DNA of 64,000 nucleotides, taken from positions 112,799 to 176,798 of the forward strand of contig CALMNW010000014.1 in NCBI GenBank assembly GCA_937872095.1, read 5' to 3'. Origin of the DNA: an uncultured Verrucomicrobiota bacterium. Lineage in GTDB: Bacteria > Verrucomicrobiota > Kiritimatiellia > CAIQIC01 > Lenti-01. The translations under genes and the position numbers were made by a program. The notes under the pieces are model-generated. The model saw only the letters and a list, made by a program, of their open reading frames with translations, was not told the DNA's origin and made no database searches. This document shows, one piece after another, positions 2,495 to 57,100 of this stretch; the stretch's first letter is position 1, and each line of letters starts with the position of its first letter.

Positions 2495-3154
2495 TCATCG
2501 TTCCGGTTTCTTTTGGAAAAGAAGATTGAAATACAGGCCCGCCCAGCGCGGCAACCCGTGCGGGAAACATCTGAATCGCCGAAGGATAAATTGGTTGTGC
2601 GCCGCCCGCACTACCTGCCGATACGTGGTCACATGGTGTTCATTGATCCCGTGGTAGCCGATCAGATCGAACAGCGGAACCATCAAGCGATCGACCCGGG
2701 GCATGCCGATCAGCAACTGGCCGTCCGGCTGCAGCAGGCGCGCGCAGGCCGCCAAAGCCGTCGACGGATCCGCCACATGTTCGAAGATGGAGAAGGCGAC
2801 GATCAGGTCGAAGCGCTCCTCGCCGGCGCTGAACGAAGCGATATCCCCCTTGTGCAACTCGGCTTCGATGCCGAGGCCCCGCAAGATCTTCCCGGTTGCC
2901 TGCGGGTCGGAAGCAAGATCAACGCCGGCCACGTGCGGCGCCAGCGTGACGAGGGTGGGCATCAACAACCCGCTGCCATAGCCAATTTCAAGGATTCGCG
3001 CATACGGAGGGCGCAGCAGGGAAAGCCCGGATTCGATCCGGCGGCGATATAGCGCGCCAACAACCGGACGGTAGTAGAAATGAAGCGGATCGTCGTAGAC
3101 GTCGTTGGGCTGGAGAACTCCCTCCGGCGGCAAAAGCAGTTTCAAACGCGCCAT
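2495..3154 (-). CDS. Class I SAM-dependent methyltransferase
   Basis: GxGxG motif ILEIGYGSGLL followed by acidic D (VDLASD) and a FSIFEHV motif. ORF-track start 3313 trimmed to internal ATG at 3154 (MARLKLLLPP), which places about 56 aa before motif I and leaves a 22-nt gap to the upstream stop at 3177. Confidence 0.75.
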   Translation of the reverse strand: MARLKLLLPPEGVLQPNDVYDDPLHFYYRPVVGALYRRRIESGLSLLRPPYARILEIGYGSGLLMPTLVTLAPHVAGVDLASDPQATGKILRGLGIEAELHKGDIASFSAGEERFDLIVAFSIFEHVADPSTALAACARLLQPDGQLLIGMPRVDRLMVPLFDLIGYHGINEHHVTTYRQVVRAAHNQFILRRFRCFPHGLPRWAGLYFNLLFQKKPER

Positions 3155-3176
3155 TTGGATTTCCCTTTCACCGCCG

Positions 3177-5132
3177 TCACTGCTTTTTCCGTCCTCGCCC
3201 ATCGGCGGCATACGCGACCACTTGCGCCCGATAGACCAGCCGCGAGCCGGCCACCGGAGCCATGCGGCAATAGGCGATTCCGTCGCGAAGCATTGGATCC
3301 TCGAAAATGACATACGGAAAGAACCGTGCCCCCTCTTGCAGGCTCACCACGCCGCTGGCCAGCCACTCGCCGGGCTGAATCCCGCGAATCGCGGGATCTT
3401 CGACCGGACAACTCCCCCCGGTCTGCCGCTGGAAGTCGGCCCAGCGGATTTGGGGAATGCGGGTGGCGGCATCGTCGGAAACCACGTGCAGGATCGAACC
3501 CTTGTGAATGCGCACGGGCACGGTTTCGGGAGGGACATCCGCCCCCGCCGGGTCCGGTCTCCGAAATGCGCGATGCGTCTTGCCGACCGCCGGCATGCAG
3601 AGCATCAAGGCCAGCAAGACGACCGGCACGACATAGGCTTCACGATAGCGCGAAGCGCTCGGCGCGACGGGCGGCGCATCGCATCGCCGCAACCGCTCGA
3701 GACACCCTTTCATGCCGATGGCCAACACCCCGCCGGTCATGGCAACGGTCGCGGCAAACACTCGATAGCCGACGTCCACCAGAAACGGCAGGGAAAGAAC
3801 AATGCCGCCCAGCGCGGCCCCGAGAGCCACCAAGAGCCTGCGCCGGCCTTCATCTTTTTCATACGCCAGCATGACGAAAAAGTAGATGAACGGCATCAGG
3901 AAAACCGTCAGTTCAACCGGAAAAGGGTACCAAGGATAGAGGCGGGCAAAAGGATGGATCAGGATGTCGCGATACCCCTCGGCCAGAGAGACAAATAGCG
4001 CAAACGGTTTCTCCCGGAGTTCCTGGCGCACAAGCCCATAGATCATCCGGGATCGCTGCGAATCCGAGAGTTCCATGAGTTCCGGATGCTCGGTCTTGAC
4101 ATAATCCCAGCCCTTGTTGCCCTTGATGATTCCATAGAGCGTATACGAGAAATTGCCGCCCAGAACGCCGCCCGTCGGCGGACCGGCCAGTCGCAACTCC
4201 GCCATATTCAGCAGAAACGGAAGGGCGATCGCCCCGACGCAAAGCGCGACCATCGGGATGCTGTATGTACGGGGCGCAGCAAAAATCCGGCCGGCGGCGA
4301 GGGCCAGCGCCGGCAGCACGAACAGGGCGCCGGCCCGGAGGGTAAACGCCACGCCCAGCAGGCCAAGCCCCAGCGCAAATGCCCCCTTGCGGCGAGTAAA
4401 CGCGCCTTGCGCCAAAAGCAGAAACCCAAAATTGCCGAAACACAGTCCCGGAATTTCGGTCATCGTGGTAGGCGCGAACGGCAGGATGAAATACACCTGC
4501 AGCAACAACGCCAGAAGCGCAGCCACGATGCCAAAGTGGTTGAAGATCCAGCGGCAAAACAGATAGATCGACAGAATCAGGATCGCGACGTTCACCACGA
4601 TGACGGCCATCAGGTTCTGACCGGTCGCCAATAGCAGCAAGGCGTAGTAGTTGGCCACCATGGGCTTTCGGGCCGACCATTCATCCAAAAATCCATGTTC
4701 CAACAGATTCCTCGCCCCCTGGAGATACCCATACGCATCGCTTTGCGGGACGAATCCGGCAATCGAAAAACCGCCGGAGATTCCGCCACTCCAGATCTTG
4801 TACAGTTTGGCCCCCAATAGCATGGCCGTCAGGATCAAGAGCAGCCAGCCGACAACCGGGCTCCGATTGAGCATCTGCTTGCGCGAAACCAGTTCATAGA
4901 TGCCCAGGGCAACCAGCACAAGCGGAAAGGGCAACTGGAGGGATGAGCCTGCGGCGCTCGATGCGGCGGCCCACAGATACAGGGCCAACGCCACGCCGAA
5001 CCCGCCCCCCATGGCAACGGTGGCCCATCCGTCCGTTTCGAGGCGGGTCCTCGCCGTGCGCAGAAAGTCCATCATGGGCCGCGACAATCCGCACAAGACC
5101 AAGCCGGCAAGTTTTTCGGCAAGATCGCCCAA
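3177..5132 (-). CDS. Polytopic integral membrane protein, probable GT-C-type glycosyltransferase or polymerase-like protein
   Basis: 651 aa with more than 10 hydrophobic helices and a soluble C-terminal domain of about 150 aa. Lies in the glycan locus. Family not assigned. Confidence 0.65.
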   Translation of the reverse strand: MGDLAEKLAGLVLCGLSRPMMDFLRTARTRLETDGWATVAMGGGFGVALALYLWAAASSAAGSSLQLPFPLVLVALGIYELVSRKQMLNRSPVVGWLLLILTAMLLGAKLYKIWSGGISGGFSIAGFVPQSDAYGYLQGARNLLEHGFLDEWSARKPMVANYYALLLLATGQNLMAVIVVNVAILILSIYLFCRWIFNHFGIVAALLALLLQVYFILPFAPTTMTEIPGLCFGNFGFLLLAQGAFTRRKGAFALGLGLLGVAFTLRAGALFVLPALALAAGRIFAAPRTYSIPMVALCVGAIALPFLLNMAELRLAGPPTGGVLGGNFSYTLYGIIKGNKGWDYVKTEHPELMELSDSQRSRMIYGLVRQELREKPFALFVSLAEGYRDILIHPFARLYPWYPFPVELTVFLMPFIYFFVMLAYEKDEGRRRLLVALGAALGGIVLSLPFLVDVGYRVFAATVAMTGGVLAIGMKGCLERLRRCDAPPVAPSASRYREAYVVPVVLLALMLCMPAVGKTHRAFRRPDPAGADVPPETVPVRIHKGSILHVVSDDAATRIPQIRWADFQRQTGGSCPVEDPAIRGIQPGEWLASGVVSLQEGARFFPYVIFEDPMLRDGIAYCRMAPVAGSRLVYRAQVVAYAADGRGRKKQ

Positions 5133-26329: not shown

Positions 26330-26740
26330 CTAGATTTTCCGGTACGTCGTCGGCTGGAAGTTGTCCGCCATCGTCCAGGTCGCGGCCGCGCAGTCCGCCA
26401 CGCGGAACACGTGCAGCAGGCCGTAGCCGTGTTGCGCGACCCACGGCTGCATGAACGGGCGCGCCGCCACGATCTCTTTCTTCAGGTCCAAATCGTCCAC
26501 GACCTGCACCGTGCCCGACACCCGGATCTGCAAATCGGGACTGTTGAAGCACGCCTCCGCCGGCGCGCCGTTCTGCACCTGCTTGGCCAGCGCCTTGCCG
26601 GTGCCCGTATGGAACAGCAGTCCCTGCTCGTCGGCCCGGTACATCATCATGCCGCGGACTCGCGGCTTGCCGTCTTCCAGCGTCGCCAAATGGCACAGGG
26701 GGTGTTCGTTGAGAAAGGTCCGGATCTCGGCGTTCGTCAT
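26330..26740 (-). CDS. Pyridoxamine 5'-phosphate oxidase-like FMN-binding split-barrel protein
   Basis: MTNAEIRTFLNEHPLCHLATLEDGKPRVRGMMMY... resembles the PNPOx-like/general-stress-protein-26 family. Track start 26938 trimmed to ATG 26740, which has a GGAG RBS; the upstream 66 aa read through the repeat array. Confidence 0.65.
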   Translation of the reverse strand: MTNAEIRTFLNEHPLCHLATLEDGKPRVRGMMMYRADEQGLLFHTGTGKALAKQVQNGAPAEACFNSPDLQIRVSGTVQVVDDLDLKKEIVAARPFMQPWVAQHGYGLLHVFRVADCAAATWTMADNFQPTTYRKI

Positions 26741-26844
26741 GGAAATCTCCTTGGTTGCGGATCGAATCCTACGCCCGCCCCTTTCGCCCCGCCAAGCCTT
26801 TCTTCGCCCCCCCGCCGGGAATCGCAGTTCATGTCCGACGTCCC

Positions 26845-26950
26845 GGTTTTCCACGCTACGTAAAAACTTTTGGGGATTTTTCCACGCTACGTAAAAACTT
26901 CGATGGATTTTTCCACAGTGTGGAAAAATATTTTCCACGGCGTGGAAAAA
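26845..26950. repeat. Intergenic array of four TTTTCCAC(G/A) direct repeats at 31/31/22-bp spacing; two are perfect palindromes TTTTCCAC-N3-GTGGAAAA
   Basis: Two 23-bp units TTTTCCACGCTACGTAAAAACTT at 26847-26869 and 26878-26900 (31-bp period), then TTTTTCCACAGTGTGGAAAAA (about 26907-26927) and TTTTCCACGGCGTGGAAAAA (about 26931-26950). Lies 107-210 nt upstream of the PNPOx-like gene start and just past the recD2 stop. Confidence 0.7.
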
Positions 26951-26980
26951 CCGCAGGCCGCGATTCCCCGCCTCGGGGAC

Positions 26981-29215
26981 TCAGGCCGTTCCGAACGCCT
27001 CGCGCAACCGCTTGCGCAGCGTCGTGTTGCGGCGGCCGGCTTCGGCGTTGCGCACCGCGAGTCCCACGGCCTTTTCCGTGCCGACGAGCACCACCAGCTT
27101 CTTGCCGCGCGTGATCCCCGTGTAGAGCAGGTTGCGCTGCAGCATGACGTAGTGCTGCGTGTGCAGCGGCAGCACCACGCACGGATATTCGCTGCCCTGG
27201 CTCTTGTGCACCGTCACCGCGTAGGCCGGCGTCAGCTCGTCCAGTTCCTGGAAATCGTAGGCCACCTTGCGGTCGTCGAAGCGCACGACGAGTTCCTGCT
27301 CGTCCAGGTCCACCTTCACGACCAGGCCGATGTCGCCGTTGAAGACGTCCTTGTCGTAGTCGTTCTCCGTCTGCATGACGCGGTCGCCTTCGCGGAACTT
27401 CCACCCGAAGCGCTCGACGTCGGTCCCGCGCGGATTAAGCGCGGCCTGCATCGCCGCGTTCAGGTTGCGCGCGCCCAGCTCGCCCTTTTGCATCGGCGTC
27501 AAGATCTGCACGTCGTTCATCGGGTCGAACCGAAACCGCCGCGGAATGGCCTCGCACACCAGCTTGCGGATCAGCTCCACGCCGCGCTCCGGCGTTTCCG
27601 CCTTCACGAAGAAGAAATCCCCGCCGCCGGCCATGCTGTCGTCCTTGTCCGGCAGTTCGGGCATCTGGCCCGAATTGACCCGGTGCGCGTTGCGAACGAT
27701 CCGGCTGCCCGCGTCCTGGCGGAAGATTTCCGTCAGGCGGTAGACCGGCAGCGTGCCGGATTCGATGATGTCGCGCAAAACGCAGCCGGGGCCCACGGAC
27801 GGCAGCTGGTCGACGTCGCCCACCAGCACCAGCAGCCCGTTCCGCGGTACCGCGCGGAAAAGATGCACGGCGAGCTGGACGTCGATCATGCTCGTTTCGT
27901 CCACGATCAGCGCATCGGTTTCGAGCGGGTTGCGCACGTCGTGGCGGAACTTGCCGGTACCCGGCTCGAAGGCCAGCATCCGGTGGATGGTCTTGGCTTC
28001 CATCCCGGACAGCTCCGCCAGGCGCTTGGCCGCGCGGCCCGTCGGCGCGCACAGCATCAGGCGCAGCTTTTTCGCCGCGAGGACTTTCACCAACGAGCGC
28101 ACGAGCGTGGTCTTGCCCACCCCCGGCCCGCCCGTGATCACCAGCACCTTGTGGCGGAACGCCCCGAAAAAGGCCTGCTTCTGCCCCTCGGCCAGCGTCA
28201 TGCCAAGCTGCTTCTGCACCCACTCCGCGGCCGCCGGCAAATCGATTTTCGGGCACGGATGCGCCCCCTGGGCGATCTCCGCCAGGCGCCCCGCCACCTC
28301 GCGCTCGTCGCGATCCAGCACGGCCAGATACACCCACGGCTCGTTGTCCTCGCCGCTGCCGACGGTCAGCGCGCCGTTCTCTATTTCGGTCCGCAGCGCT
28401 TCTTCCATCGTCCCGAGCGGAATGCCCAGCATCTCCGCGGACTTGGCCAGCAGATCGTCGCGCGGATAGGCGCAGTGCCCCTGGTTCGACAGCTCCAGCA
28501 GGACGTAGGTCAGCCCCGCCCGCGCCCGCAGCACGGATTCCTTCTCGATCCCGAGCTTTTCCGCGATCTGGTCGGCGATCTTGAATCCGATGCCGTGGAT
28601 GTCGCGCGCGAGGCAGTACGGATCCAGGCGCACCTTGGCGATGGCCTGGTCGCCGTAGACCTTGTAGATGCGGAACGCGCGGCCCGTGCTCACGCCGTTC
28701 GCGAACAAAAAGCTCATGATCTCGCGGATGGTCTTCTGCGCCTTCCACGATTCCTTGATCTGCTGGCGGCGCAGCTTCCCGATGCCGTCCACCCGTTCCA
28801 GTTCCGCCGAGCGGTTTTCGATGACGTCCAGCACGCCCAGGCCGAACGCGTCCACCAGCTTCTTCGCGTAGACCGGCCCGATGCCCTTGATGAGCCCCGA
28901 ACCGAGGAATTTTTCGATGCCTTCGAGGGAATCGGGCACGACGGCCTCGAGGTGTTCGGCCAGGAACTGCCGGCCGTGCTTGCGGTCGATGTTCCACTTG
29001 CCCCGGGCCTTGATCCATTCCCCCACGTTGATCCGCGGCACTTTGCCGACCACGGCGACGGTCTCGCGGAAACCCCGCGCCTTCACCTTCAGGACGCAGA
29101 ACCCCGTTTCCTCGCTGTGGAACGTGATCAGCTCGACCAGCCCCTCGAGCGCTTCTTCTTTCGCCGGATCTGGAACCGACGTCCTGCGCGCGCCCTGTTC
29201 CCCGCTTCCGCGCAT
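26981..29215 (-). CDS. recD2: RecD2-type ATP-dependent DNA helicase (RecD/TraA family)
   Basis: Walker A ITGGPGVGKTT, motif II LIVDETSMID, Ia CAPTGRAAKRL, C-terminal VTVHKSQGSEYPCVVL and LLYTGITRGKK. N-terminal region like RecD2 of Deinococcus-type enzymes. Confidence 0.92.
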   Translation of the reverse strand: MRGSGEQGARRTSVPDPAKEEALEGLVELITFHSEETGFCVLKVKARGFRETVAVVGKVPRINVGEWIKARGKWNIDRKHGRQFLAEHLEAVVPDSLEGIEKFLGSGLIKGIGPVYAKKLVDAFGLGVLDVIENRSAELERVDGIGKLRRQQIKESWKAQKTIREIMSFLFANGVSTGRAFRIYKVYGDQAIAKVRLDPYCLARDIHGIGFKIADQIAEKLGIEKESVLRARAGLTYVLLELSNQGHCAYPRDDLLAKSAEMLGIPLGTMEEALRTEIENGALTVGSGEDNEPWVYLAVLDRDEREVAGRLAEIAQGAHPCPKIDLPAAAEWVQKQLGMTLAEGQKQAFFGAFRHKVLVITGGPGVGKTTLVRSLVKVLAAKKLRLMLCAPTGRAAKRLAELSGMEAKTIHRMLAFEPGTGKFRHDVRNPLETDALIVDETSMIDVQLAVHLFRAVPRNGLLVLVGDVDQLPSVGPGCVLRDIIESGTLPVYRLTEIFRQDAGSRIVRNAHRVNSGQMPELPDKDDSMAGGGDFFFVKAETPERGVELIRKLVCEAIPRRFRFDPMNDVQILTPMQKGELGARNLNAAMQAALNPRGTDVERFGWKFREGDRVMQTENDYDKDVFNGDIGLVVKVDLDEQELVVRFDDRKVAYDFQELDELTPAYAVTVHKSQGSEYPCVVLPLHTQHYVMLQRNLLYTGITRGKKLVVLVGTEKAVGLAVRNAEAGRRNTTLRKRLREAFGTA

Positions 29216-42893: not shown

Positions 42894-43033
42894 GTGAAAT
42901 TCCAAATTGCTTGCCCATCATAGACGAAATAGACCTCCATGCAAGCCCGGGAGCGGCCCTTAGATCGCCTGGCGGCAGCCGGTTTTCCCCGCTTGCCGGG
43001 GGCGCAGGGCTTCGCTACTCTGGGCAGGCAAGC

Positions 43034-45055
43034 ATGAGTGCCGCTTCCATCCGAATCCAGCGCTTCGCCGTATGTTGGGCGCTGATGGGCCTCGGGGCGC
43101 CGGCCTTGCTGCGCGCCCAAGCCCCGACTCCGGGATCGAACGAGGCGGCGCCGATGGGCGCCACGGTCCAGGGTCAAGGCGCGGCGCGCCACGTGGTTTT
43201 TCGCACCTGGGCTCCGAACGCTTCCCGAGTGGCCGTGAGCGGCGATTTCAACGGCTGGAAAGAAGAGCCCATGCAGAAAGAGGCAAGTCGCCCCGGCCAT
43301 TGGGTGCTCGACAGCCGCCAGGCCCGTCCGGGCGACGCCTATCAGTTCGCGATCGACGGGTTGCGACGGCGCGATCCGCGCGCGCGCGCCGTGGACATGG
43401 GCGCCAACAAATCCTTTATTCTGGATCCTCGGACCTATGCGTGGGGTCCGGCGGACGGCTGGAAGATGCCGGCGAAGGAAGACCTGGTGATGTACGAAAT
43501 GCATCTGGGCACCTTTGCAAGCGGCATTCCGGGCAACGGGCCGCTGTTCGAGCGGGCGACCAAGCGCCTGCCCTATTTGAAGGCGCTCGGCATCAACTGC
43601 ATCCAGCTCATGCCCGTAAACGAGTTTCCCGGGGAACGATCATGGGGCTACAATCCCGGCGATCTTTTCGCCGTCGAATCTTCCTATGGCGGCGGCGACG
43701 CCTTCCGGTATTTCATCCGCGCCTGCCACACCAACGGCATCGCCGTGGTGCTGGACATCGTCCACAACCACTATGGACCGAGCGACATCGCCGTCTGGCA
43801 GTACGACCAGCGCCTGCCGGAAACCGATGGCGGCATCTATTTCTATCCCGACGAAGACCGCCGCCTCACCGAATGGGGCCCCCGGCCCGATTACGGCAAA
43901 CCGGAAGTCCGGGCGTTCATCGTGGATGCCGTCAAAACGTTCCTGACGGAATACCGGCTGGACGGGTTCCGGTGGGATTCCGTCCACAATATCCGCTACT
44001 ACCTCAACGGCGAGCGCTCCAATCCCGACGGCGACCGCACGCTGGCCGAAGCCAACGACTGGATGCGCAAGAATCGGCCCGACGCGCTGCGCATCGCCGA
44101 AGACCATGCGTTCGACGGCGGCGGAGTCGGATTCGACGCGCAGTGGAATTCCGCTTTCCAGGCGACGCTGTCCGCCTTGGTCCGCGGCGGCGACGCCCAG
44201 CGGAATCTGGAGCTGTTCGCGGCCGAACTGGAGCATCTCGACGGCATGAATTGGGTGAACTTCGCCGAATGCCACGATTCCGCCGGCGATCTCAACCAGC
44301 ACCACCGCCTGCCCGCCTATATCGACCCTGCCACGCCCGACAGCCTGAGGGCCCGGGCGTTGGCGCTGCTGGCCAACGGCATTGCCCTGACCGTTCCGGG
44401 CTATCCCATGATGCTGCAGGGATTCGAAATGCACGAAGTGGAAGATTTCAGCGACAACCGGCCGTTGCCTTGGGCCCGTGCGCAAAGCACCCACTCGGGG
44501 CTGGTGCGCGCCAACGCCGAACTGATCCGCCTGCGCCGCGATATGAAAGGAACCACGCCGGGATTGAAGGGCCCCGAGCTGGACGTGCTCCATTGCGACA
44601 ACGACGCCCAAGTCATCGCCTACAGCCGCCAGCAGGCCGGAGCGCCTCGAGACCGCGCCACGATGGTGGTGATCAATCTGTCCGGCGCGCCCCTGAAGCA
44701 ATATGGCGTACGTTTTCCGGCTTCCGGCGCGTGGTACTGCCACTACAATTCCGGGTCGGCGGCCTATGCGAAGGATTTCGACAACGTCGGGCCCAAGCCC
44801 GGCGTCGGGTTCGTCTTGCCGCCGGGGCAAACCACCCTGCCGCTCGACGTCAGCCGCTATTCGATGCTGGTTTTCTCCAAAACGGCGCCGCCTCAGGTCA
44901 CCTCCCTGACCAAGGCGGCCCCCGCCAAAGAAATTCCCGCGACCGCCAAGACCGAGATTTCCCCGTCTATCCGCAAAATCGAGGATTACGTCGAGGAAGT
45001 TCTGGAGCCCTTCCCCTATCTGCCCGTCCCGTTGCCGGCCGAGTGGAAGCCCTGA
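43034..45055 (+). CDS. Secreted GH13 alpha-amylase-family enzyme with N-terminal CBM48 (TreZ/branching-enzyme-like)
   Basis: Signal peptide (MSAASIRIQRFAVCWALMGLGAPALLRAQA). CBM48 (VFRTWAPNASRVAVSGDFNGW). GH13 regions I DIVHNHYGP, II GFRWDSV, III IAEDHAF, IV FAECHDS. Track start trimmed to ATG 43034. Confidence 0.88.
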   Translation: MSAASIRIQRFAVCWALMGLGAPALLRAQAPTPGSNEAAPMGATVQGQGAARHVVFRTWAPNASRVAVSGDFNGWKEEPMQKEASRPGHWVLDSRQARPGDAYQFAIDGLRRRDPRARAVDMGANKSFILDPRTYAWGPADGWKMPAKEDLVMYEMHLGTFASGIPGNGPLFERATKRLPYLKALGINCIQLMPVNEFPGERSWGYNPGDLFAVESSYGGGDAFRYFIRACHTNGIAVVLDIVHNHYGPSDIAVWQYDQRLPETDGGIYFYPDEDRRLTEWGPRPDYGKPEVRAFIVDAVKTFLTEYRLDGFRWDSVHNIRYYLNGERSNPDGDRTLAEANDWMRKNRPDALRIAEDHAFDGGGVGFDAQWNSAFQATLSALVRGGDAQRNLELFAAELEHLDGMNWVNFAECHDSAGDLNQHHRLPAYIDPATPDSLRARALALLANGIALTVPGYPMMLQGFEMHEVEDFSDNRPLPWARAQSTHSGLVRANAELIRLRRDMKGTTPGLKGPELDVLHCDNDAQVIAYSRQQAGAPRDRATMVVINLSGAPLKQYGVRFPASGAWYCHYNSGSAAYAKDFDNVGPKPGVGFVLPPGQTTLPLDVSRYSMLVFSKTAPPQVTSLTKAAPAKEIPATAKTEISPSIRKIEDYVEEVLEPFPYLPVPLPAEWKP

Positions 45056-45114
45056 CCGGGAATTCAAGCGATATTTCCTTTGCAAAAACGGTTTACGCCC
45101 AGTAAGCTGGAGAC

Positions 45115-48100
45115 ATGAAAATCCGCCGCGCATTGCCCCTGCTTTCCTTGTGTTTGCTCTTGGCCGATTCGGCGGGCGCGCAATCCGCGCGCAGCGGCGT
45201 GGGTGCCGTTCCGTATGCCGATGCCGGCGGCACGGGTGTGACGTTCCGTACTTGGGCGCCCAATGCATCCGCCGTCGCCGTTCGGGGCGCTTTCAACGGC
45301 TGGGGCACCACCGCGCTCGTTAAGGACATGCCAAGCGGAAGCTGGAATGGATACTGGTCGACAGACGTCTCCGGCGCCCGGTCGGGACAGGAATACAAAT
45401 TCACGTTGAACGGCACCTATAAAAAAGATCCGCGCGGGCAGCGCGTCGTCAATTCCGTCGGCAATTCCATCGTCTACGACCACGGCGCGTTCGACTGGGG
45501 CAGTTCCACCAACTTCAGCGCCATCTGGCGAAACGATCTGGTCATCTATGAAATGCATGCCGGCTCCTACAACGCGGAAGATTGGCTGCCCTCCACGTTC
45601 GACGAATGCATCGACAAGATCGCCTATCTGAAGGCGCTCGGCATTTCCGCCGTCGAACTCATGCCCGTCAACGAATTCCCCGGCGACCGCTCGTGGGGCT
45701 ACAATCCGAGCGATCTTTTCGCCATCGAGTCGTCCCACGGCGGCCCCGACGCCCTCAAACGGTTCGTCAAAGCGTGCCACGAGAACGGCATCGCCGTCAT
45801 CGTGGACGTCGTCCACAACCACTATGGTCCCTCCGATCTCGGCGACGGCATGTGGCAATACGACGGCTGGTCCAGCGGCGGCTACGGCGGCATCTATTTC
45901 TACAACGACTGGAAAGCGTCCACCGATTGGGGCTCGACCCGTCCCGACTACGGCCGCAGCGAGGTCAAGGATTTCATCCAGGCGCAAATCCAGATGTTCG
46001 TCGAGGACTACCACGTCGACGGCTTCCGCTGGGATTCCGTCTACAACATCCGCAACTGCAGCGGCACGTGGAATCCAGATGGCAGCGCCATGTTGGCGCA
46101 GGTCAACAATTGGTTGATCGCCAACCACCCCGACGTGTTCCGCATCGCGGAAGACCATGCCTTCGACACCGACGTCGGCTTCGAAGCCCAGTGGGACCAC
46201 GACTTCCTGAGCAACGTCCGCTATCTCGCCACGGCCGGCAGCGATTCCGACCGCAACATGAACACGCTCGCCTACTTCCTCGGCAGCGGCGGATTCGACC
46301 GCGTGGTCTATGTCGAAAGCCACGACAGCTGCGGAGATCTCAACAGCAAGCATCGCCTGCCCTACGACGTCGATTCCGGAAGCCCGGAAGGGTATTGGGC
46401 CAAAAAACGCTCTCTGCTGGTCAACGCCATCGCGCTGGTTTCCTCCGGCATTCCCATGATCTTCGAGGGATCCGAAATGCACGAGTGGTACACCTTCTCG
46501 AACAACCAGGCCCTGCGCTGGTCCCAGACCAACGCGAACGCCGGCATCGTGAACGCCTACGCCGATCTGATCCATCTGCGCCGGAACGCCTATGGCAATA
46601 CCGCGGCCCTCAAAGATCCCTACAACGTCGACGTCCACCACGTGAACAACACCGCCAAGGTCGTCGGCATGAAGAGAGGCAACCTGCTGTTCGCCATCAA
46701 CTGTTCGGCCACCGTCCGCAACGGGTATTCGATGGCCTTCCCCTCTTCCGGTACCTGGTACTGTCTCTACAATTCGGACCGGCAAGCCTACGACTCCGCG
46801 TTTGGCGACGTCGGACCGGCCGTCGGCGGAACCGTCGTAGCGGACGGCAGCGCCAACGCCTCCCTCGATCTCGGCGCCTATTCCCTGCAAATCTACGCCC
46901 AGACGCCGATCCCCGAAGAATCCGCCGCCACCTTCGATCCGGCGATTCCGTCCAACTGCGCGTCCATCGTCGCCATCACCTATTCGCCCGGCGACGGTCC
47001 CCTCCAGGGCGCCACGAATCTCGATGCCTATATCGGCCGCAACAATTGGCTGAATCCAACCAACGTCCCGATGACGGCCAACGGCAGCGACTGGACGCTG
47101 GACTACGCGATTCCCGACGACACCTGGGAAATCAACCTTTCCTTCACCGACGGCGCCGCCACCAACGCCCTCTGGGACAACAACGGCGGCGACAACTGGA
47201 CGGTGGCCGTCTTGAACTGCGGCGACCTCCCCGCCGACGTCGAACTGAGTCCCGCCGTTCCGCAGGGCTGCATTCCCGTGAAGATTTCCTACGAAATCAA
47301 CGGGGGCCCCCTCACCAACGGGGCCCCTCCTGTCTACGCTTATGTCGGCCGCAACGGCTGGCAAAATGCCCAACATATCGCCTTGACGAACGAATTCGAC
47401 GACACCTGGAGCGGATGGTATTCCATTCCCGACGACACCTGGGAAATCGACTATGTCTTCCATAACGCCTCCGACATCTGGGACAACAACGACTCGGAAG
47501 ACTGGCACGCCATCGTCAGCGCCTGCATCAACACCGAGCAACCCCAACTCGCCATCACCAACCCCATTCCCATCACCAACGTGGCCAACGAGATCGAAAG
47601 CCTGGCGCTGCAAGGAACCGCCAATCTCCTGACTGGGCATCTGCGCTGGACCAATACGCTCTCCGGGACCTCCGGCGCGATCGATTACGCCACCAACTGG
47701 AATGTCGCCTCCGTGCCATTGGCCGAAGGCGTGAACTTAATCCGCGTTTCCGGAACCAATTCCGCCGTCAATCCCAACGATGGCGCCGCCGATTCCCCGG
47801 CAAATCCCACCTATTCGGCTTCCCTGAGCTGGTTCGACGGCCAAAACGGCGGCAACCAGTTCAAAGCCTGGAGCATCAGCAGCGGAGCCACCGCGTCCCT
47901 GGCCGTTTCCAATCCCTATTGCAGCTTCGCTTCGAACGCCTACGCCTGGGCCCTGCAAGCCAGCGGCGGAGGATTCATCCAGGCCGTCCGCCCCTTCGCC
48001 GCCTCCCTGCAACCGGGCGACCAGGTTTCTGTCGTCTTCGAAACCGGCGGCATCGACAGTCCTGGTTCGGTCGGCGTCGCGTTCCACAACCGCTTCGAAC

Positions 48101-48687
48101 AACGTCTCGCGGAATTCTATTTCCAAGGGGGCTCGACCAACTACGTCGTCAACGACTTCTCCGAGCGCAATACCGGCATCCCGTGGAACTCCGAAGAGCC
48201 CCGCACCTGCACGTTCGAGTTGCTCGACGCCCTGACCTACCGCTTGACCGTCAACGGGCAGGCATTCGAAGGCACGTTTGCCGATGCCTCGGAGTATGCC
48301 GTTTCCTACGTCCGTTTCTGGAATTGGAACGCCGGCAGCGGGGATGACCACAAGGTTTTCATCGGCGATCTTTCCGTCGGCGGAGATCCCCTGCCCGTCC
48401 TGACCTACTCTTCCGAAATCGCCGTCAGCCGCGCGGCATCCCCCTTGCGCACCGTCCAATCGCTCCTCTCCACCGATGACGGGTTCGTGGCCACGGTAAA
48501 CAGCGTCGCGGGCCTCGCCGACAACGTCTGGAGCGCCAGTGTCCTGACCAACGGCGGCTGGAACTGGGCGCCGCTCCCCACCAACGAGTATGCCATCGTG
48601 CCTTCCAACAACACGGTTTCCATCATCTTGGCGCCCACGAACTTGCTGACGGTCATTTCCATCGGCAAGCCCGGCGGCGGCAATTGA
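45115..48687 (+). CDS. Secreted multidomain GH13 enzyme: CBM48 + GH13 catalytic domain + two CBM25/26-like starch-binding modules + about 400-aa uncharacterised C-terminal region
   Basis: Signal peptide MKIRRALPLLSLCLLLADSAGAQSA. Paralog of the preceding gene (LMPVNEFPGDRSWGYNPSDLFAIESS, VVHNHYGP, GFRWDSV, IAEDHAF, YVESHDS). Tandem modules with the WDNNGGDNW / WDNNDSEDW signature at about 47000-47240 and 47310-47530. Confidence 0.88.
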   Translation: MKIRRALPLLSLCLLLADSAGAQSARSGVGAVPYADAGGTGVTFRTWAPNASAVAVRGAFNGWGTTALVKDMPSGSWNGYWSTDVSGARSGQEYKFTLNGTYKKDPRGQRVVNSVGNSIVYDHGAFDWGSSTNFSAIWRNDLVIYEMHAGSYNAEDWLPSTFDECIDKIAYLKALGISAVELMPVNEFPGDRSWGYNPSDLFAIESSHGGPDALKRFVKACHENGIAVIVDVVHNHYGPSDLGDGMWQYDGWSSGGYGGIYFYNDWKASTDWGSTRPDYGRSEVKDFIQAQIQMFVEDYHVDGFRWDSVYNIRNCSGTWNPDGSAMLAQVNNWLIANHPDVFRIAEDHAFDTDVGFEAQWDHDFLSNVRYLATAGSDSDRNMNTLAYFLGSGGFDRVVYVESHDSCGDLNSKHRLPYDVDSGSPEGYWAKKRSLLVNAIALVSSGIPMIFEGSEMHEWYTFSNNQALRWSQTNANAGIVNAYADLIHLRRNAYGNTAALKDPYNVDVHHVNNTAKVVGMKRGNLLFAINCSATVRNGYSMAFPSSGTWYCLYNSDRQAYDSAFGDVGPAVGGTVVADGSANASLDLGAYSLQIYAQTPIPEESAATFDPAIPSNCASIVAITYSPGDGPLQGATNLDAYIGRNNWLNPTNVPMTANGSDWTLDYAIPDDTWEINLSFTDGAATNALWDNNGGDNWTVAVLNCGDLPADVELSPAVPQGCIPVKISYEINGGPLTNGAPPVYAYVGRNGWQNAQHIALTNEFDDTWSGWYSIPDDTWEIDYVFHNASDIWDNNDSEDWHAIVSACINTEQPQLAITNPIPITNVANEIESLALQGTANLLTGHLRWTNTLSGTSGAIDYATNWNVASVPLAEGVNLIRVSGTNSAVNPNDGAADSPANPTYSASLSWFDGQNGGNQFKAWSISSGATASLAVSNPYCSFASNAYAWALQASGGGFIQAVRPFAASLQPGDQVSVVFETGGIDSPGSVGVAFHNRFEQRLAEFYFQGGSTNYVVNDFSERNTGIPWNSEEPRTCTFELLDALTYRLTVNGQAFEGTFADASEYAVSYVRFWNWNAGSGDDHKVFIGDLSVGGDPLPVLTYSSEIAVSRAASPLRTVQSLLSTDDGFVATVNSVAGLADNVWSASVLTNGGWNWAPLPTNEYAIVPSNNTVSIILAPTNLLTVISIGKPGGGN

Positions 48688-51100: not shown

Positions 51101-54100
51101 CTAGTTGGTGCTTTGGGCCCCGGCCAAGACGGTTCCGCCGGTCAGATAGTTCACGGTCAAACCGGTTCCGTTGTATTCATAGATCTTCACGGCGTACCAT
51201 AATCCCGGATTGAGCCCCTGCAACAGGAAGGCACTGCCGGTTCCGTCGTAACAGATCTTGTTCCCGTCGCCCTTATCCAAGGCTTGCATGAAGTCCACGT
51301 TCACGCCTTCAGGCGCCACTCCATCCAAAGGCGTCCAAGTGGTCGTCGTTCCTTGTCGGACGACGACGATGCGCCGGGCGCCGTTGCCAGACGTCCAACT
51401 CATCCCGATTTGGGTGGCGCTGACGTTGGTAAAGATCAAGGAGTTCGCGTTCGCCGTCGGCTCATCCGCAAGATCGGGCAACGTCGGCGTGCCGGTCCAC
51501 CCCATCCACCGGGTCGGGAGCTGCGGATAGAAGTCGGTCGGGTAGTAATACCACGTCCAGCTGTTGCCCAGTCCGCCGTTCTTCGACACGATGACGATCA
51601 CGTCGTTGGGCTTGAAGTAGCCGCCGGGGACCAATCCGTTGTTGCTCACAAAGCGCCAAACGCTGTTGGTGTCGCAGTAGATGGTACTGCCTCTCAATAC
51701 GGATTTCGTCGTGGTGTCCAGCGTGTAGATTTCGTCGCTCTGGCCCCGGAGGCCCTTCGTGAATCCGCTGGAAACCAGGCGCATCTGGCTGGGATGGGCG
51801 GCCACGGGCAGACGCAGCGACACCACGTTGTACACCGGCGCGATCGGATCGTAGCGGTTACCGCAATGGATCACTTCGCTGAATCCGGCCGCGTTGGTCG
51901 GGACCTGCGCGATGGCCGACCAGATCATGGCCGGAACGCTGCTGGTCTTGGTGTAGTCCGTCCAGGCATTGGTGTTCACGTAGCCTTCCGGCAAGGGATC
52001 CGGCAGCGTGATCGAGAATCCGCGGCTGAAGAAGTCGTTGGACATCAGCATCGTGGTGACGTCGGTGCTGTCGTTCTCGCGGATCCATTGGCCGCTTTGG
52101 GTAAGGTAGAAGGCCTCGGCCAGCGGCGCGTTGGTTCCCCACGAGAAGAACTCGACCTTGGTGCCATCCAGCGCGCTGGCTCCGCCGGGGAAGCTTTCCA
52201 CGCCGCCGAACACGCCTTCGAACGTGTTGGTATACGGCACGCCGTGGAGCGAGACGAAGTTCTGGCCGGCCGACAACACGATGTTGTGGATGGCGTAGAC
52301 TTCCTCGCTGGCCAGCGGCCGTTGCGGGAGGACGACTGTTTCGTTGCTGATCACGGCTTCCCGGAAGGTCTTCCAGCGATCCTTGTAGGAGGCCCGGTAG
52401 AACCGGATGTCGCCGCGATCGCGGGCTTGGCCGCCGTCGTCCACGAACCAGTTGGAGCGGACGGTGCCGACCAGCTGCCACGTGTTGTTGGTGCTTTCCC
52501 GGAACGTGCTCGCATCCCAGTAGATCAGGTCGTAGTCCTTCGTGACGTTCGTATACACGCCATTGGTCTGGAAACCGGCCGCAAGCCAAGCCAGTCCGGC
52601 GGCGGTATCCACGTTGGTCCGGGTCAAAGAACCGGCCGACGGGAAAGCCGCCAGCGCATCGCTCTTCGGCAACGTCCAGCCGCGGGTCAGCGCGAACTTG
52701 ATGGTGTTGTTCGTCGCCCAGCTCGAGATGTTCGCCGGACCTTCGTTGCCGGCCCGGTCCACGCCCACGATCACGACGGCGTAGTCCTGATCGAAGTCGA
52801 GGTCGTACAGGCGGATCTTGTTTTGGGGCAGGTTGGTCAGCGCCAGATAGTTCGTGCCGGTGGCCGAGGGGTCGGAGATCGGCGTGTTCCAGGTCGCGCT
52901 GGGCCAGGTCCGGTAGGTTCCGGTGGCGATGAAGTTCGTATAGATGAACCCCGTGTCGGTGCTGCTCGGGTTGTCGTCCGAAGGCACGTCCATTGAATTG
53001 AATACGCCGTAGTAGATCTTGTAGGAACGCCACGGCGACAGGATGTCCCGCGGGACGGGTTCCGTCAGGCCCCACGACGGGTAGTTGGAATGGGTGGTGA
53101 GATCGGGGCCTACGTTGGCGGTATACCACTGCACGTCGAACTGCGTGGTGGGATCGTCCACCAGCTCGGTGGAAGCGCCCGTGGCATAGCCGATCGTGGC
53201 CACCGGCGTCGGCGGCGTCACGTCGTATGCGGTGTAGAATTCGACGGGGTCGCCGCCCATCCGGTCGTTGGCGCGGTTGTTGTCCGCGTCCACCGCGAAC
53301 AAGTAGCTGGGATTGGAGATGCCCTGATTGGCCGCCGTGGCGGTGAATCGCATCGACGGCAGGTTGGTTCCGATGTCCACGGACAGGCGGATGTCGTCCC
53401 AGTAGGTCGTATTGCCGCCGCCGTCGATCAGGGAGATCTTCAGCACTTCGGTTTCGTTGTCGCCGACCGCCACGGCGGGCGCGATCGAGAATGCCGTCCA
53501 CTCGTTTGTTTCAGGCAAGCTCAAGTTCTCCGTATCCGTCGGCGTGACCAGGTTGGTGGCCGCGAACGCCTCGATCCGGAAGGTGGCGCCGGCGACCGTA
53601 TCGCACCGGTACCAGCCGCTCACTCCCACGACCGGCGGGTTGGACGCGAGATTGCGGAACTCGATGAACTGGGACGCCGAGCCGCCATTGGCGGTCTTCA
53701 GGCAGTTGGTCCCTTCATACGGCTCGTTCGTATCGCCATATCGGCCCTGGAAATGGAAGAAGCTGTCGCCGTTGGTCGTCCAGCCGACGTCCCGCATTTC
53801 GAAGCCGTAGTTGGCCAGGGCGCCATTGGTGGCGGCCACGGCATACGGCATGCCGTAGGCGGCGCGGTTGCTGGGCGCCATCGAAGCGACGTCGTTCGTC
53901 GTCACGCGGTATTCGCCGATGCCGGTGAGGATGCGCTGCTTGGCGGTATAGTTCGTGCCCGGATCCTGATCCACGGCCACCGAATCGAAGGTGACGATGA
54001 ACTCGGGCTGGTTGGTCCACGGGGCGGTTTCGCGGGTCACCGAACCGACCGGCATGCCATTGACGCGAACGACGCCCACGGTGCTGGGCACGCCGAGGTC

Positions 54101-57100
54101 GTTGTCGACGATGTACAGCGCCAGATCGCCGGTCATCTGCAAGTCGTCGTAGGTGCGGTCGTCGTCGTAATCCCACACGCTGGAACTGCCGAGGTATTCG
54201 CCCAGCATCAGATTCGTGTAGGTCGGCCGCGGCAGGTCGGCCGTGAACGATCCGCCCAGCTCGTCCAGCACCTCGCCATCGACGAAGTTGGAAGCGAAGT
54301 TGAAGACCTGGTTGGTGACGAACACCCCGCCATCCGGCGCGTTCATCGAGAAGCGCGGGTGTTTGGTTGCGTCGGCGTTGTTGGTGGAACAAATGCCGCT
54401 GTCGCTGTCCCAGGTGTGGCCTTGCAGCGCGTACGTCCCGCTGGCGAACTCTTCGTCCGACACTTCGGTGACGCCGTTCGTATCGGAAACCACCTGGCGG
54501 AAGGTCAGGTTGTGGAGCGACCAATAGGTCCCGATTCCCGTGTTGTTGGTGGCGTTGTAGTAGCCGTGGATGCGGAATTGGGTGGTCTGGTCTGCCGGCA
54601 GAACGAACACGTTGGTCGGATAGTTCTGGGAGAAGGAGTACCACGTGTTCGTGACGATCGGACCGTTCGTGCTGCCCGAGAAGGTGTACGGGCCCTGCTG
54701 CCGGACCTGCACGTTGTCCACGAACTGGCGGATATAGAAGTACGTGGGAGCGTTGGTCGAGTTGAACCGCGATTGGAACGTGATGTTGGTCACGGCCATA
54801 TCGGCCTCCGGCACCATGCTGGCGGCCCAGTACTTGGTGTTGTAGTGCCAGGCGTTGGCGCGGATCGCGTAGGTTCCGCCGGTGGGACCGACTTCGAACA
54901 GATACGGGACCTTGTCCTCGCCGTTGAGCGTGCCGGTCTTCAGCACGTCGACTTCGACGCTGGAATCGGTCTTGGTCGCGATGGTTCCGTTGGTCTTGGT
55001 GAGGAAGAGCCACTGGGCGAGAATGCCCGAACGCGGCTGCATCGACGTCAAGGTCAGTTTCGGCCGGATCGTATCGTCGTCCAGCACGCGCATGCGGCCG
55101 AGGCTGCCGTTGAACCACAGGATGTCGCCGGCCCGGTCGAGGTCGGCGTCCGGAACGTCGATCGTCAGCGGAATGCCGGCGCCGGCGGCCGATTCCAGGA
55201 CCAGATCGGTGATGTCGGCCTTCGAGAACGCACCGGTAGCCGAACCGACGTTCCACCAGAGGGTCGATTCCTCGGACTTGCCGTCGTCCACCAGATTGGC
55301 TTTTCCGGCGTCGACCGTGCCGGTCATGCTGCCCATCCGCATGACGGCCTGGGCATCTTGGATGCCGCTGCCGGGGTCGTACACGTTGCCTTGGACCTGG
55401 ATCTGGTAGCCCGATTCCGCGATCTGCGCGTCCGTCATTTGCAATTCGTCGGGTACGCCGATCAATTGGATGTTGTCCATGCGGAAGGCGCCGTCGTTGC
55501 CGCCGTAGCCGGGACCGAGGACGAACTTCAGATAGACCTTGGCGGAACCTTTCGGAACCACGCCCGACAGATCGATATAGCGCAGCCGCCAATCGGTGGC
55601 ATCCGTCATGGTCCACGGCGGCCAGAGGGCATTGGTCTGGAAGGAGCCGTCGAGACCCGTCAACGACCACTGCACGGAAACGTTGGTGAAGCTGTGCGAT
55701 CCGCCCCGCTCCGCCCAGGACAGGGTGATGTCTTCGGCGGAAACCAGCGGCAGCTCGAACTGGACGTACGGCACGTTCGCCGTGCTGAAGCCCCAGGAAC
55801 CGATGGCTGCCATGTACAGTTCGCCCCGCACGGCCTGATCGAATCCGTCGAACATTTCGTTGACGGTCGTGCCGCCGGTGCCGACGTTGATCAGTTCATT
55901 CAGGTACAACGGCGTCCAGGTGATATAGGCGTTGGTCAGCAGGCTGCCCCACCAAGGAATCCGGGCGCCCTCGACGGTGCTGTTGGTGAAGCTCCAGGCC
56001 GTGAGCACCACGTCGCGGAGACCGTTGGTCAAGGCCATGTCCACATACGGATCCGTTCCGACCTTGACCGCCGTATTGGTGCCGGCCACCGGCGGATCCT
56101 CGTCGTCGTCGTACACGTTGAAGACGATGAAGCCGCCCAGACCGACGATGCGGTCGTAGGCGCCCGCCGTCGCGATGAAGTTCGTGAAGCCCACCAGGTA
56201 GTCGCTTTCCCAGACGCGATAGTCCCATTGGTTGGTGTTGACGTGTTCCGGGTAATACCAGGGCACTTCGGCATCTTCCGTGCGCTGCATGATGTAGCGG
56301 GCCGCCAGTTCCTCGCTCGGTCCGATGCCGCAGATGTCGATCCATTCGTTCGTGTTCGACATGCGGAACAAGCCCACCGGATCGTCGCCGCTGACCTGCA
56401 GCACGTCGTTGGTGCTCAGGATGTAGGACCTTCCTTCGGCCGTCAAGGCATCGACCATCTCTTGACGGGCCGAACTGTTTTCCGTCCCCGTCGTGCCTAG
56501 GAGTCCGCCGTTGACGATGGCCAAGGTCGTGCCGTGGTCCAGCCAGTAGGTCGTGTCGGACAGCCGGAAGATATGGGCCCATTTGACGTACTTGTCGGCC
56601 GGGGTCGTCTGGCTGGCGAGATAGTACTGGCTCAGGTCGATCGCGGCGCCGGTGCCGTTGTAGATTTCCACGTACTTGTCGTAGTTGTTGCCTTCGCCGA
56701 ATTCGCCGAAGAACAGATCGTCGGCTCCGCCCTGGTCGGACAAGACGATGGTGTTCGTTTCCTTCAGGCTGGTGGAGGTGATCCAGACGCGGGAGGTGTA
56801 GGTCGCCAGATCCACTTCGTTCGTCGGCAAGCGGTCGACGATGATGTTGGTGAAGAGCTGCCAGCCGCTGGAATAGGTGGTGTTGGACAGCACGATCTGG
56901 TTCGTCGGGTTGTAGAGATAAACGTTGGGATCCTGCAGGTCCAGCAGGTTGAACTCCGCTTCCGAGATCCGGGTGCGGTGGTAGACCTTGAAGGCGACCG
57001 GATAATTCGTGTCGGGCTGGGCCAACTGGCCGTCGGACACCCAGTTGGTGTTGTTGTCCAGATAGTAGTCGTACACCCGCGGATAGGTGAAGTTCAGCAC

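Follow-up and report, generated by a model that had tools for sequence, protein, structure and literature searches.

Regularly spaced palindromic arrays as a dispersed repeat family of Kiritimatiellia-type bacteria: the array between recD2 and a PNPOx-like gene

The bacterial interspersed mosaic elements (BIMEs) and repetitive extragenic palindromic (REP) sequences, or palindromic units (PU), of Enterobacteria, like the REP super-families, consist of short and imperfect palindromes. These are dispersed in many copies, mostly outside genes, and form tandem clusters with fixed-length linkers and mosaic modules, and their copy number and presence differ among close relatives (PMC3733652). Intragenic copies are found occasionally, and the elements are candidate sites for host DNA-binding proteins. 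The same features are seen in an array of four palindromic units at positions 26847-26950 of the 64,000-nucleotide stretch of contig CALMNW010000014.1 analysed here (the window), between recD2 and a PNPOx-like gene, and in related arrays of other genomes. The window array is very probably one copy of a dispersed, clade-specific, multi-copy mosaic repeat family of Kiritimatiellia-type bacteria, within the Planctomycetes-Verrucomicrobia-Chlamydiae (PVC) group. The closest known kind is the REP/BIME type of interspersed palindromic repeat, with in-frame copies like those of the Rickettsia palindromic elements (RPEs).

REP units are palindromes of about 20-40 bp in many clustered and dispersed copies. 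The Kiritimatiellia unit is 19-20 bp long and is found in at least 9-11 loci per metagenome-assembled genome (MAG) in CAYMTY01 and SABN01, with 1-8 units per array. A GTAG or CGTC end tag characterises REP sequences (PMC3733652), whereas the Kiritimatiellia units end in TTTT and AAAA tracts and have GTAG only in the loop of some units with an ACGT core. REP sequences are species-specific, but the 8-mer core of the Kiritimatiellia family is conserved across about 30 species; its 19-bp units have whole-turn periods of 22 and 31 bp, and no association with a REP-associated tyrosine transposase (RAYT) was seen among the flanking open reading frames (ORFs). RPEs are palindromic repeats that lie in frame in coding genes and are translated, as are some copies here, in genes for a YfhO-family protein and an amidohydrolase. 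RPEs are, however, single elements of 100-150 bp, while the Kiritimatiellia family consists of tandem 19-bp units that are mostly intergenic. DnaA boxes are also clustered in AT-rich intergenic DNA, at oriC, datA, the DnaA-reactivating sequences (DARS) and the DnaA-box clusters (DBCs) of B. subtilis, and the half-site TTTTCCACA fits their consensus. The Kiritimatiellia arrays differ in that there are dozens per genome, their half-sites alternate in orientation, 59% of the half-sites are off the consensus, origin markers are absent and some copies are intragenic. The ARG boxes of ArgR and the NrdR boxes are palindromes of 16-19 bp, spaced at about 21 or about 31-32 bp from centre to centre, with the dimers on one helix face. 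These operators are confined to a defined regulon, whereas the Kiritimatiellia family has no functional theme or promoter preference. We know of no counterpart to an architecture that combines 19-bp units, a 22/31-bp helical register, a DnaA-box-like core and multi-species conservation. No description came up in full-text literature searches on the motif or on palindromic repeats of Kiritimatiellia or Verrucomicrobia; they returned no more than the DnaA box of cyanobacteria and the general survey of REP sequences.

A scan of 185,579 species genomes for exact matches to TTTTCCACNNNGTGGAAAA found at least 113 loci, referred to here, with others, by L or P numbers. Among the matches listed, at least about 85 loci come from about 30 MAGs of high GC content, which carry the labels Verrucomicrobiota, Kiritimatiellia/-ae, Lentisphaerae, Opitutia or similar ones. 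All of the loci with more than one palindrome belong to this PVC-labelled group, and the remaining loci, about 28 from other phyla, have single matches only. The repeat is dispersed within assemblies, with at least 11 loci in SABN01, at least 9 in CAYMTY01 and at least 6 each in MWEZ01 and CAZECJ01, and the palindromes are mostly in tandem, for example at 800, 822, 852 and 874 of L050; L078 has five. The same palindrome pattern gave 28 single matches and no arrays in 2.9 million viral contigs, and hence no phage or operator lead. The RecD2 protein of the window is 91-96% identical to a series of MAG proteins, the named ones being from 'Kiritimatiellia bacterium', and the window was assigned to Kiritimatiellia on this basis. 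CAZECJ01, a 95% relative by RecD2, is itself an array-rich MAG carrying several arrays, as is MWEZ01, where RecD2 is 85% identical to that of the window. In 11 loci (L002, L009, L012, L025, L026, L041, L045, L093, L099, L101 and L167) the array is within about 100 bp of a contig end, and the L167 contig begins inside a unit. The family evidently fragments short-read assemblies, so that genes beside arrays get called as truncated proteins.

Across 89 high-GC loci, totalling 645 kb, 333 units with no more than 4 mismatches to the palindrome were found, 132 of them perfect and 101 with one mismatch. Arrays are head-to-tail runs of 1-8 detectable units in either orientation, at times with other short modules. 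Start-to-start distances between neighbours up to 130 bp apart (n=190) are 21-23 bp in 76 cases (22 bp in 73), 30-32 bp in 99 (31 bp in 70) and 41-43 bp in 8, with only 7 at other values. The spacings of 22, 31 and 42 bp are about two, three and four turns of B-DNA, and linker length is constant to +/-1 nt while linker sequence varies. Units are of two types. The A type, TTTTCCAC-RSY-GTGGAAAA, is symmetric and has a 22-bp period and a linker of 3 nt. The B units are asymmetric, TTTTCCAC-RCN-ATGGAAAA-ACTTT-N4-5-GAT, with a length and period of 31 bp, and are seen in both orientations. A rarer second core has ACGT replacing CCAC/GTGG. Symmetric ACGT units, TTTTACGT-NNN-ACGTAAAA, with the same ACTTT extension and 31-bp period, are present in L114/L115, L150, L155 and L062, and hybrid CCAC/ACGT units in the window, L120 and L157. 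An 8-mer census of the half-sites contains 88 CCAC/CCAT units versus 6 compensated CCAT/CCAT units. It also includes 5 symmetric ACGT/ACGT units, to which L155 adds 3. Variation at position 9 (R) is independent of that at position 11 (Y) (AT 44, AC 30, GT 29, GC 14).

Other short modules accompany the arrays. A GC-rich hairpin module, TCCCGC-N4-6-GCGGGA, is interleaved with arrays directly against the T run of a unit (L003 ~2715-2735; L006 ~3555-3575; L078 ~562-585 and ~730-752; L094 ~3140-3165), and with this T run it resembles a canonical intrinsic terminator in one orientation. A module of about 105 bp (...TTGCCGCT...GCGCTATAGACCTCGCGTTCGCC...GGCTCGGGCTCGGCACTCGGCTA) is present in or beside the arrays of four MAGs at 77-81% identity (L052 2008-2115; L112 3836-3942, reverse strand; L109 4582-4690; L031 2833-2937). 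It is absent from the window, and possible identities are a small RNA, a miniature inverted-repeat transposable element (MITE) or a mosaic module of another kind. A second short dispersed motif, the heptamer GAACCC(C/T), is repeated in tandem (2-3 copies) in several MAGs (L014 1134; L034 1406; L039 174 and 1496; L044 702; L089 5820; L093 3174), often with a few tens of bp between it and an array or immediately before a start codon, as at trpA in L039.

The window array (26847-26950) has the sequence TTTTCCACGCTACGTAAAAACTTTTGGGGAT / TTTTCCACGCTACGTAAAAACTTCGATGGAT / TTTTCCACAGTGTGGAAAAATA / TTTTCCACGGCGTGGAAAAA. A repeat finder defines four 20-nt units in it, at 26847-26866, 26878-26897, 26909-26928 and 26931-26950, with start-to-start distances of 31, 31 and 22. 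By unit type the array is divided as follows.

26847-26877, no strand assigned: unit 1, 31-bp B-type, TTTTCCAC-GCT-ACGTAAAA-ACTTTTGGGGAT.
26878-26908, no strand assigned: unit 2, 31-bp B-type hybrid, 87% identical to unit 1 over 31 nt.
26909-26927, no strand assigned: unit 3, A-type, perfect palindrome TTTTCCACA-G-TGTGGAAAA.
26931-26949, no strand assigned: unit 4, A-type, perfect palindrome TTTTCCACG-G-CGTGGAAAA, 22 bp past unit 3.

An earlier sequence-only reading had described four motif copies, two of them perfect palindromes and two within 23-bp direct repeats, with the first three phased at 31 bp, in an AT-rich array between a PNPOx-like gene and recD2. All of this is borne out; the GC content is 38% in the array against 63% in the window. 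One detail requires correction. The gap of the palindrome, given as 3 or 4 nt, is 3 nt between the 8-mers in both perfect palindromes, each of which has a 9-1-9 structure. Units 1 and 2 share an identical 23-mer (TTTTCCACGCTACGTAAAAACTT) within 31-nt direct repeats, and their right half, ACGTAAAA, is the second core variant and not a degenerate ATGGAAAA. Unit 1 is a hybrid of a CCAC half-site and an ACGT half-site (TTTTACGT on the minus strand), homologous both to the TTTTCCACGCTATGGAAAACTTTTT units of L097/L074/L019/L016 and to the TTTTACGT...ACGTAAAA units of L114, L150, L155 and L062. The anatomy, with palindromes phased on one helix face, does resemble multi-site binding by a dimeric protein, as proposed in that reading, and the phasing generalises to about 180 neighbour pairs elsewhere.

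The window contains 10 copies of TTTTCCAC against 1.75 +/- 1.18 expected, a number reached in none of 100 shuffles, and 6 of the 10 are inside the array. When up to 3 mismatches are allowed, the 19-mer palindrome has 4 matches in the window, where 0.19 would be expected, and the array contains all of them. The two strands of the array fold equally well, at -57.8 and -53.0 kcal/mol (z = -3.8 and -3.5 versus shuffles). An Rfam scan of the array found no family at the gathering threshold, the best match being a miRNA hairpin model at 31 bits of the 63 needed. A terminator scan made two calls in the array, both minus-strand, where shuffles gave an expectation of 1.3; each stem is half A-U, and what follows it as a U run is part of the next unit. 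Several other candidates were rejected. A CRISPR array has repeats of 23-50 bp and unique spacers of similar length, whereas here 19-bp repeats alternate with linkers of 3 or 12 bp. The motif is too rare outside the array (4 copies in 64 kb) for an uptake-signal sequence. A-tract curvature is an unlikely source of the phasing: within a unit, distances of 7 and 15 bp separate the A and T tracts, which puts them out of phase.

The arrays are indifferent to gene function and to transcription context. Arrays occupy 38 of 264 co-directional (14%), 18 of 98 convergent (18%) and 13 of 83 divergent (16%) gene pairs (chi-square p=0.65), where the genes of the MAG loci were called with a purpose-made, crude ORF picker based on third-position GC (GC3), so that the context statistics are approximate. 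A promoter regulon should avoid convergent pairs and a terminator should avoid divergent pairs; neither bias is present, which indicates context independence. There is no polarity with respect to transcription, either in the orientation of asymmetric units against the sense strand (29:33) or in the centre base (34:24). The 150 flanking ORFs match 159 different Pfam families with no shared theme, and the largest groups, of four members, are orthologs. In an all-against-all BLAST and bulk Pfam search of these ORFs for a recurrent gene beside the arrays, such as a transposase or regulator, only orthologous contexts recur. No tyrosine transposase or RAYT is among the 25 commonest Pfam families, and one DDE transposase was seen.

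Arrays can also sit in frame within genes. At least three genomes have one inside a gene for a YfhO-family membrane protein (L050, 800-892; L112, 3819-4016; P0121), and the NCBI translation of P0121 runs straight across the third copy ('...VFHTVEKHFPQHGKK...'). The L050 and L112 ORFs are 72% identical over their full length, on both sides of the array. Their alignment has a sole long gap, of 35 aa, which is the 105-bp module, translated in L112 as 35 in-frame codons. The YfhO orthologs P0124 and P0122 are without the array insert. In L015 (array at 4921-5013), an Amidohydro_1 domain match spans the array. In-frame arrays add peptide segments such as VFH(S/T/G)VEK, FPQ(R/H)GK and FSTVWK. Arrays are at orthologous positions in different species in at least nine pairs, and the same 8-mer is kept at orthologous sites though the flanking proteins are only 72% identical. 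A filled and an empty site can also be paired. In MWEZ01 (L003, 2645-2902) an 8-unit array with about 1 kb of further sequence separates the orthologs of window genes 42911-45055 and 45115-48687, which are only 60 bp apart in the window (45055-45115). The genes at this site are of the alpha-amylase family, and the orthologs are 71% and 59% identical.

Both neighbours of the window array are on the minus strand, and the features of the junction are as follows.

26330-26740, minus: PNPOx_N-family gene, 136 aa, the downstream neighbour, starting 106 bp beyond the array.
26747-26752, minus: Shine-Dalgarno sequence AAGGAG of the PNPOx-like gene, kept in the window, L120 and L157.
26766-26795, minus: putative sigma-70-type promoter of the PNPOx-like gene, -35 TTGGCG at 26790-26795, an 18-nt spacer and -10 TAGGAT at 26766-26771.
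26966-26978, minus: GC-rich hairpin, CCCCG-AGG-CGGGG in the minus-strand reading, 3 nt past the recD2 stop codon.
26981-29215, minus: recD2, 744 aa, stop codon 31 bp from the array.

The GC-rich hairpin is kept at the matching place in L120, L121, L151 and L157, with or without an array after it, and is probably the 3' hairpin of recD2 itself. It is also the right arm of a 19-nt, 79% complementary inverted repeat that brackets the array (26807-26825 / 26960-26978). Since this arm is the recD2 hairpin and other arrays have no comparable flanks, the bracketing was put down to chance in GC-rich DNA, and a MITE with terminal inverted repeats was rejected. The putative PNPOx promoter was recognised through conservation, both hexamers being identical in L120 and L157 while the spacer sequence varies; a consensus promoter scan made no call there. 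The array begins 51 bp upstream of the putative -35. It fills the interval that separates the 3' hairpin of recD2 from the PNPOx promoter, where it probably has no dedicated regulatory role.

Whole units are gained or lost rapidly at this junction. Relatives with 91-96% identical RecD2 have 4, 3, 2, 1.5 or 0 units after recD2. In the 95% relative L120 the order is recD2-array-PNPOx with 3 units; unit 4 is missing as a clean one-unit (23-bp) indel relative to the window, and one half-site has a GTGG-to-ACGT change. L157, found through its 78% identical PNPOx, has the same layout as L120. In L114/L115, which lack PNPOx, two ACGT-core units directly follow recD2 and a convergent glycosyltransferase gene comes next. 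L150 has 1.5 ACGT units after recD2, and its contig stops 152 bp past the gene, before any next gene. L151 (CAZECJ01) and L121 have no array after recD2, and the PNPOx of L121 overlaps the preceding gene, leaving no upstream spacer. The more distant RecD2 orthologs (L116-L119 and L152-L154) also have none. From the PNPOx side, three ACGT units separate PNPOx from a LacI-family gene in L155 (PNPOx 83% identical), L156 and L158 (78-79%) have the recD2-PNPOx order without an array, and homologs at 52-58% identity have no array. In total, an array is upstream of PNPOx in 4 of 7 close orthologs. By this comparison of relatives, the array is old at the recD2-PNPOx junction, evolves fast, and has been kept with either neighbour after rearrangements.

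Two further observations concern this junction. The recD2-PNPOx spacers of L156 (~640-670) and L158 (~2880-2910) contain, instead of an array, a single 26-bp perfect palindrome, GGCCACCTTTTTATAAAAAGGTGGCC, with the CCAC/GTGG and T/A-tract ingredients in inverse order. In addition, gene order breaks down on the 3' side of recD2 (compared in the window, L114, L116, L118, L120, L121, L151 and L152), even at 91-96% RecD2 identity. The following gene in the 91-96% relatives is PNPOx with a PF20603 hydrolase, a convergent GT4 glycosyltransferase, or an AdoHcy-hydrolase-like or MBOAT gene; in the 85-89% relatives it encodes a 2525-aa GH18 protein, a convergent IAT_beta protein or an NTP-transferase/APH protein.

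The core of the unit resembles a DnaA box. Family-wide, 214 of 518 half-sites (41%) fit the consensus TTWTNCACA, the commonest being TTTTCCACA (213 of 518), which is the DnaA box of cyanobacterial origins (PMC4674748). The other 59% are off the consensus and include TTTTCCACG (149) and TTTTCCATN (about 104). On these sequences, canonical DnaA, if present in these bacteria, should bind many of the units. The match of the window motif to a relaxed DnaA box, as noted in the sequence-only reading, holds for both half-sites of unit 3 but does not extend to the array, in which 2 of 8 half-sites fit, no more than chance for the window. The same perfect palindrome is found once in each of two Rothia loci (L042 3826; L111 4045), about 1 kb from dnaA. 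There it probably represents two true oriC DnaA boxes arranged head to head, and it serves as a positive control in that the motif can be a DnaA site elsewhere. A search for dnaA signatures in all scan loci found only these two, with none near any PVC array. GC skew in the window remains negative through 26-27 kb. Its only sign change, near 51 kb, falls exactly where a giant ORF on the minus strand has its low-coordinate (3') end, and because of this coincidence the cumulative-skew minimum there is seen as an effect of gene composition and not as evidence of an origin. This ORF (51101-63967, minus) exceeds 4289 aa and runs off the window end, with no Pfam match in the 1000 residues examined (60968-63967).

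Membership of the dispersed family together with action of the units as duplex protein sites is, as a joint reading, slightly favoured. For the mechanism by itself, that the units are phased duplex-DNA sites for a dimeric sequence-specific protein, the chances appear evenly balanced. Each unit would be bound as duplex by the dimer through half-sites TTTTCCACR with centres 11 bp apart, a distance that suggests the geometry of a helix-turn-helix dimer. The 22/31/42-bp register would set all dimers on one helix face, and the one-faced array would nucleate a cooperative nucleoprotein complex acting as a chromosome-structuring or roadblock-type element, not as a gene-specific switch. Duplex protein sites are favoured by the whole-turn spacing kept despite variable linkers, by the conservation across about 30 species of half-site sequence and not just complementarity, and by the absence of polarity with respect to transcription. 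They are also favoured by the commonest variant, which breaks the top pair on one side, and by the independence of positions 9 and 11, which a hairpin could not pair anyway across the 1-nt centre. The other reading takes the palindromes as REP-like stem-loops of RNA or single-stranded DNA, which would shield the 3' ends of mRNA, cause attenuation of transcription or be substrates of a RAYT-type enzyme; the arrays would then be selfish or mildly useful repeats in the manner of E. coli BIMEs. This is possible though rather unlikely, and the two readings are not mutually exclusive. In its favour, each unit has a stem of 7-8 bp and a loop of 3-5 nt, and folding of the window array is far stronger than that of shuffles. 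REP/RPE-type elements typically show the whole-unit indels, mosaic modules, in-frame copies within genes and breaks in assemblies that are seen here (PMC3733652). Against hairpins, there is no orientation bias with respect to transcription, and arrays are equally common in divergent regions, where no 3' ends lie. The one-sided C-to-T change is 15 times commoner than its compensated form, a linker fixed to +/-1 nt is not a hairpin requirement, the terminal tag is missing, tyrosine transposases are absent from the top families of the flanking ORFs, and the terminator scan is not above the shuffle expectation. Several points weigh against protein sites. The fixed spacings could simply reflect the lengths of two inherited modules, with no selection on helical register. 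In the ACGT/ACGT variant the palindrome is retained although the core is a different one, and single arrays contain it together with CCAC units (window, L120, L157 and L062); this is more easily explained by hairpin pairing, which the change from CCAC/GTGG to ACGT/ACGT retains, than by one protein specificity. By our reading, good pairing of the window's hybrid units is limited to the recD2-sense strand and uses two G-U pairs, and the hybrid units of L120 and L157 likewise pair through G-U on that strand only. Many arrays start 2-60 bp past a stop codon and 40 of 88 stop-adjacent sides are within 60 bp of one, which is REP-like in that REP sequences lie preferentially downstream of coding regions, although without an excess of convergent over divergent pairs. 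Lastly, the context statistics depend on the approximate gene calls.

If the units are protein sites, the arrays might be the binding platform of a chromosome-level protein, either DnaA (in distributed titration or reactivation over hundreds of consensus-grade boxes) or a new nucleoid-associated dimer of the PVC group, in which the 22/31/42-bp register would build one-faced nucleoprotein filaments at about 50-100 sites per genome; this is unlikely. The narrower proposal that the arrays are datA- or DARS-like sites that titrate or remodel DnaA across the chromosome is improbable. DnaA specificity is conserved across bacteria and would explain one 8-mer kept in about 30 species, and head-to-head DnaA boxes are a feature of E. 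coli DARS. The commonest half-site is a consensus-grade box used in cyanobacterial origins, and the palindrome pattern also caught the origin-side boxes of Rothia. The majority of half-sites, including six of the eight in the window, nevertheless miss the stringent consensus, and the strict head-to-head/tail-to-tail alternation does not resemble the arrays on which DnaA is known to oligomerise. Neither the dozens of arrays in each genome, a copy number far above that of any known datA/DARS-type system, nor the copies in frame within genes fit datA or DARS, and neither dnaA nor dnaN is near any PVC array. As a cluster of DnaA-box-like motifs in AT-rich DNA the window array could suggest oriC itself, but the likelihood of this is negligible. 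The array is one of many per genome and is missing from relatives with 91-95% identical RecD2; the window has no dnaA, dnaN, parAB or other origin-marker genes, the flanks are GC-rich with no AT-rich unwinding stretch beside the array, and the GC-skew check showed no sign change at 26.8 kb. An origin, already doubted in the sequence-only reading, is thereby excluded as far as sequence evidence goes. The alternative favoured there, a multi-site operator through which a dimeric regulator controls gene 26330-26740, now appears very improbable. The short distance to the conserved putative -35 agrees with it, as do the arrays upstream of PNPOx in relatives, including L155 where the upstream gene is of the LacI family and not recD2, and the concentration of ACGT-core units at the recD2/PNPOx locus across relatives. 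Given the persistence of the L155 array upstream of PNPOx without recD2, a local effect on the PNPOx promoter is conceivable. Against an operator, the same array type is beside unrelated genes at at least about 85 loci in about 30 genomes, is as frequent between convergent as between divergent genes, and lies in frame inside others. Both L114/L115 and L150 retain an array after recD2, the former facing the glycosyltransferase with no PNPOx, while the PNPOx orthologs of L121, L156 and L158 have no array and L062 has an ACGT unit but no PNPOx. A regulon is likewise contradicted by the flanking genes, which have no functional theme, and by the 18 arrays between convergent genes.

As a single-gene operator the array would be ordinary, and its interest lies in the family. 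If the family reading is true, Kiritimatiellia genomes hold an abundant interspersed repeat for which no published description was found. In practical terms, the arrays break short-read MAG assemblies, mimic origins and operators, and add translated peptide segments to some proteins. The clean helical phasing and multi-species core offer a handle on the function of interspersed palindromic repeats, as protein platform or hairpin, and the phasing makes the choice between protein and hairpin directly testable. Were the platform reading true, it would mean a lineage-specific chromosome-organising system that tolerates translation inside genes. The array family would also provide a handle on chromosome organisation and DnaA buffering in the poorly studied PVC group.

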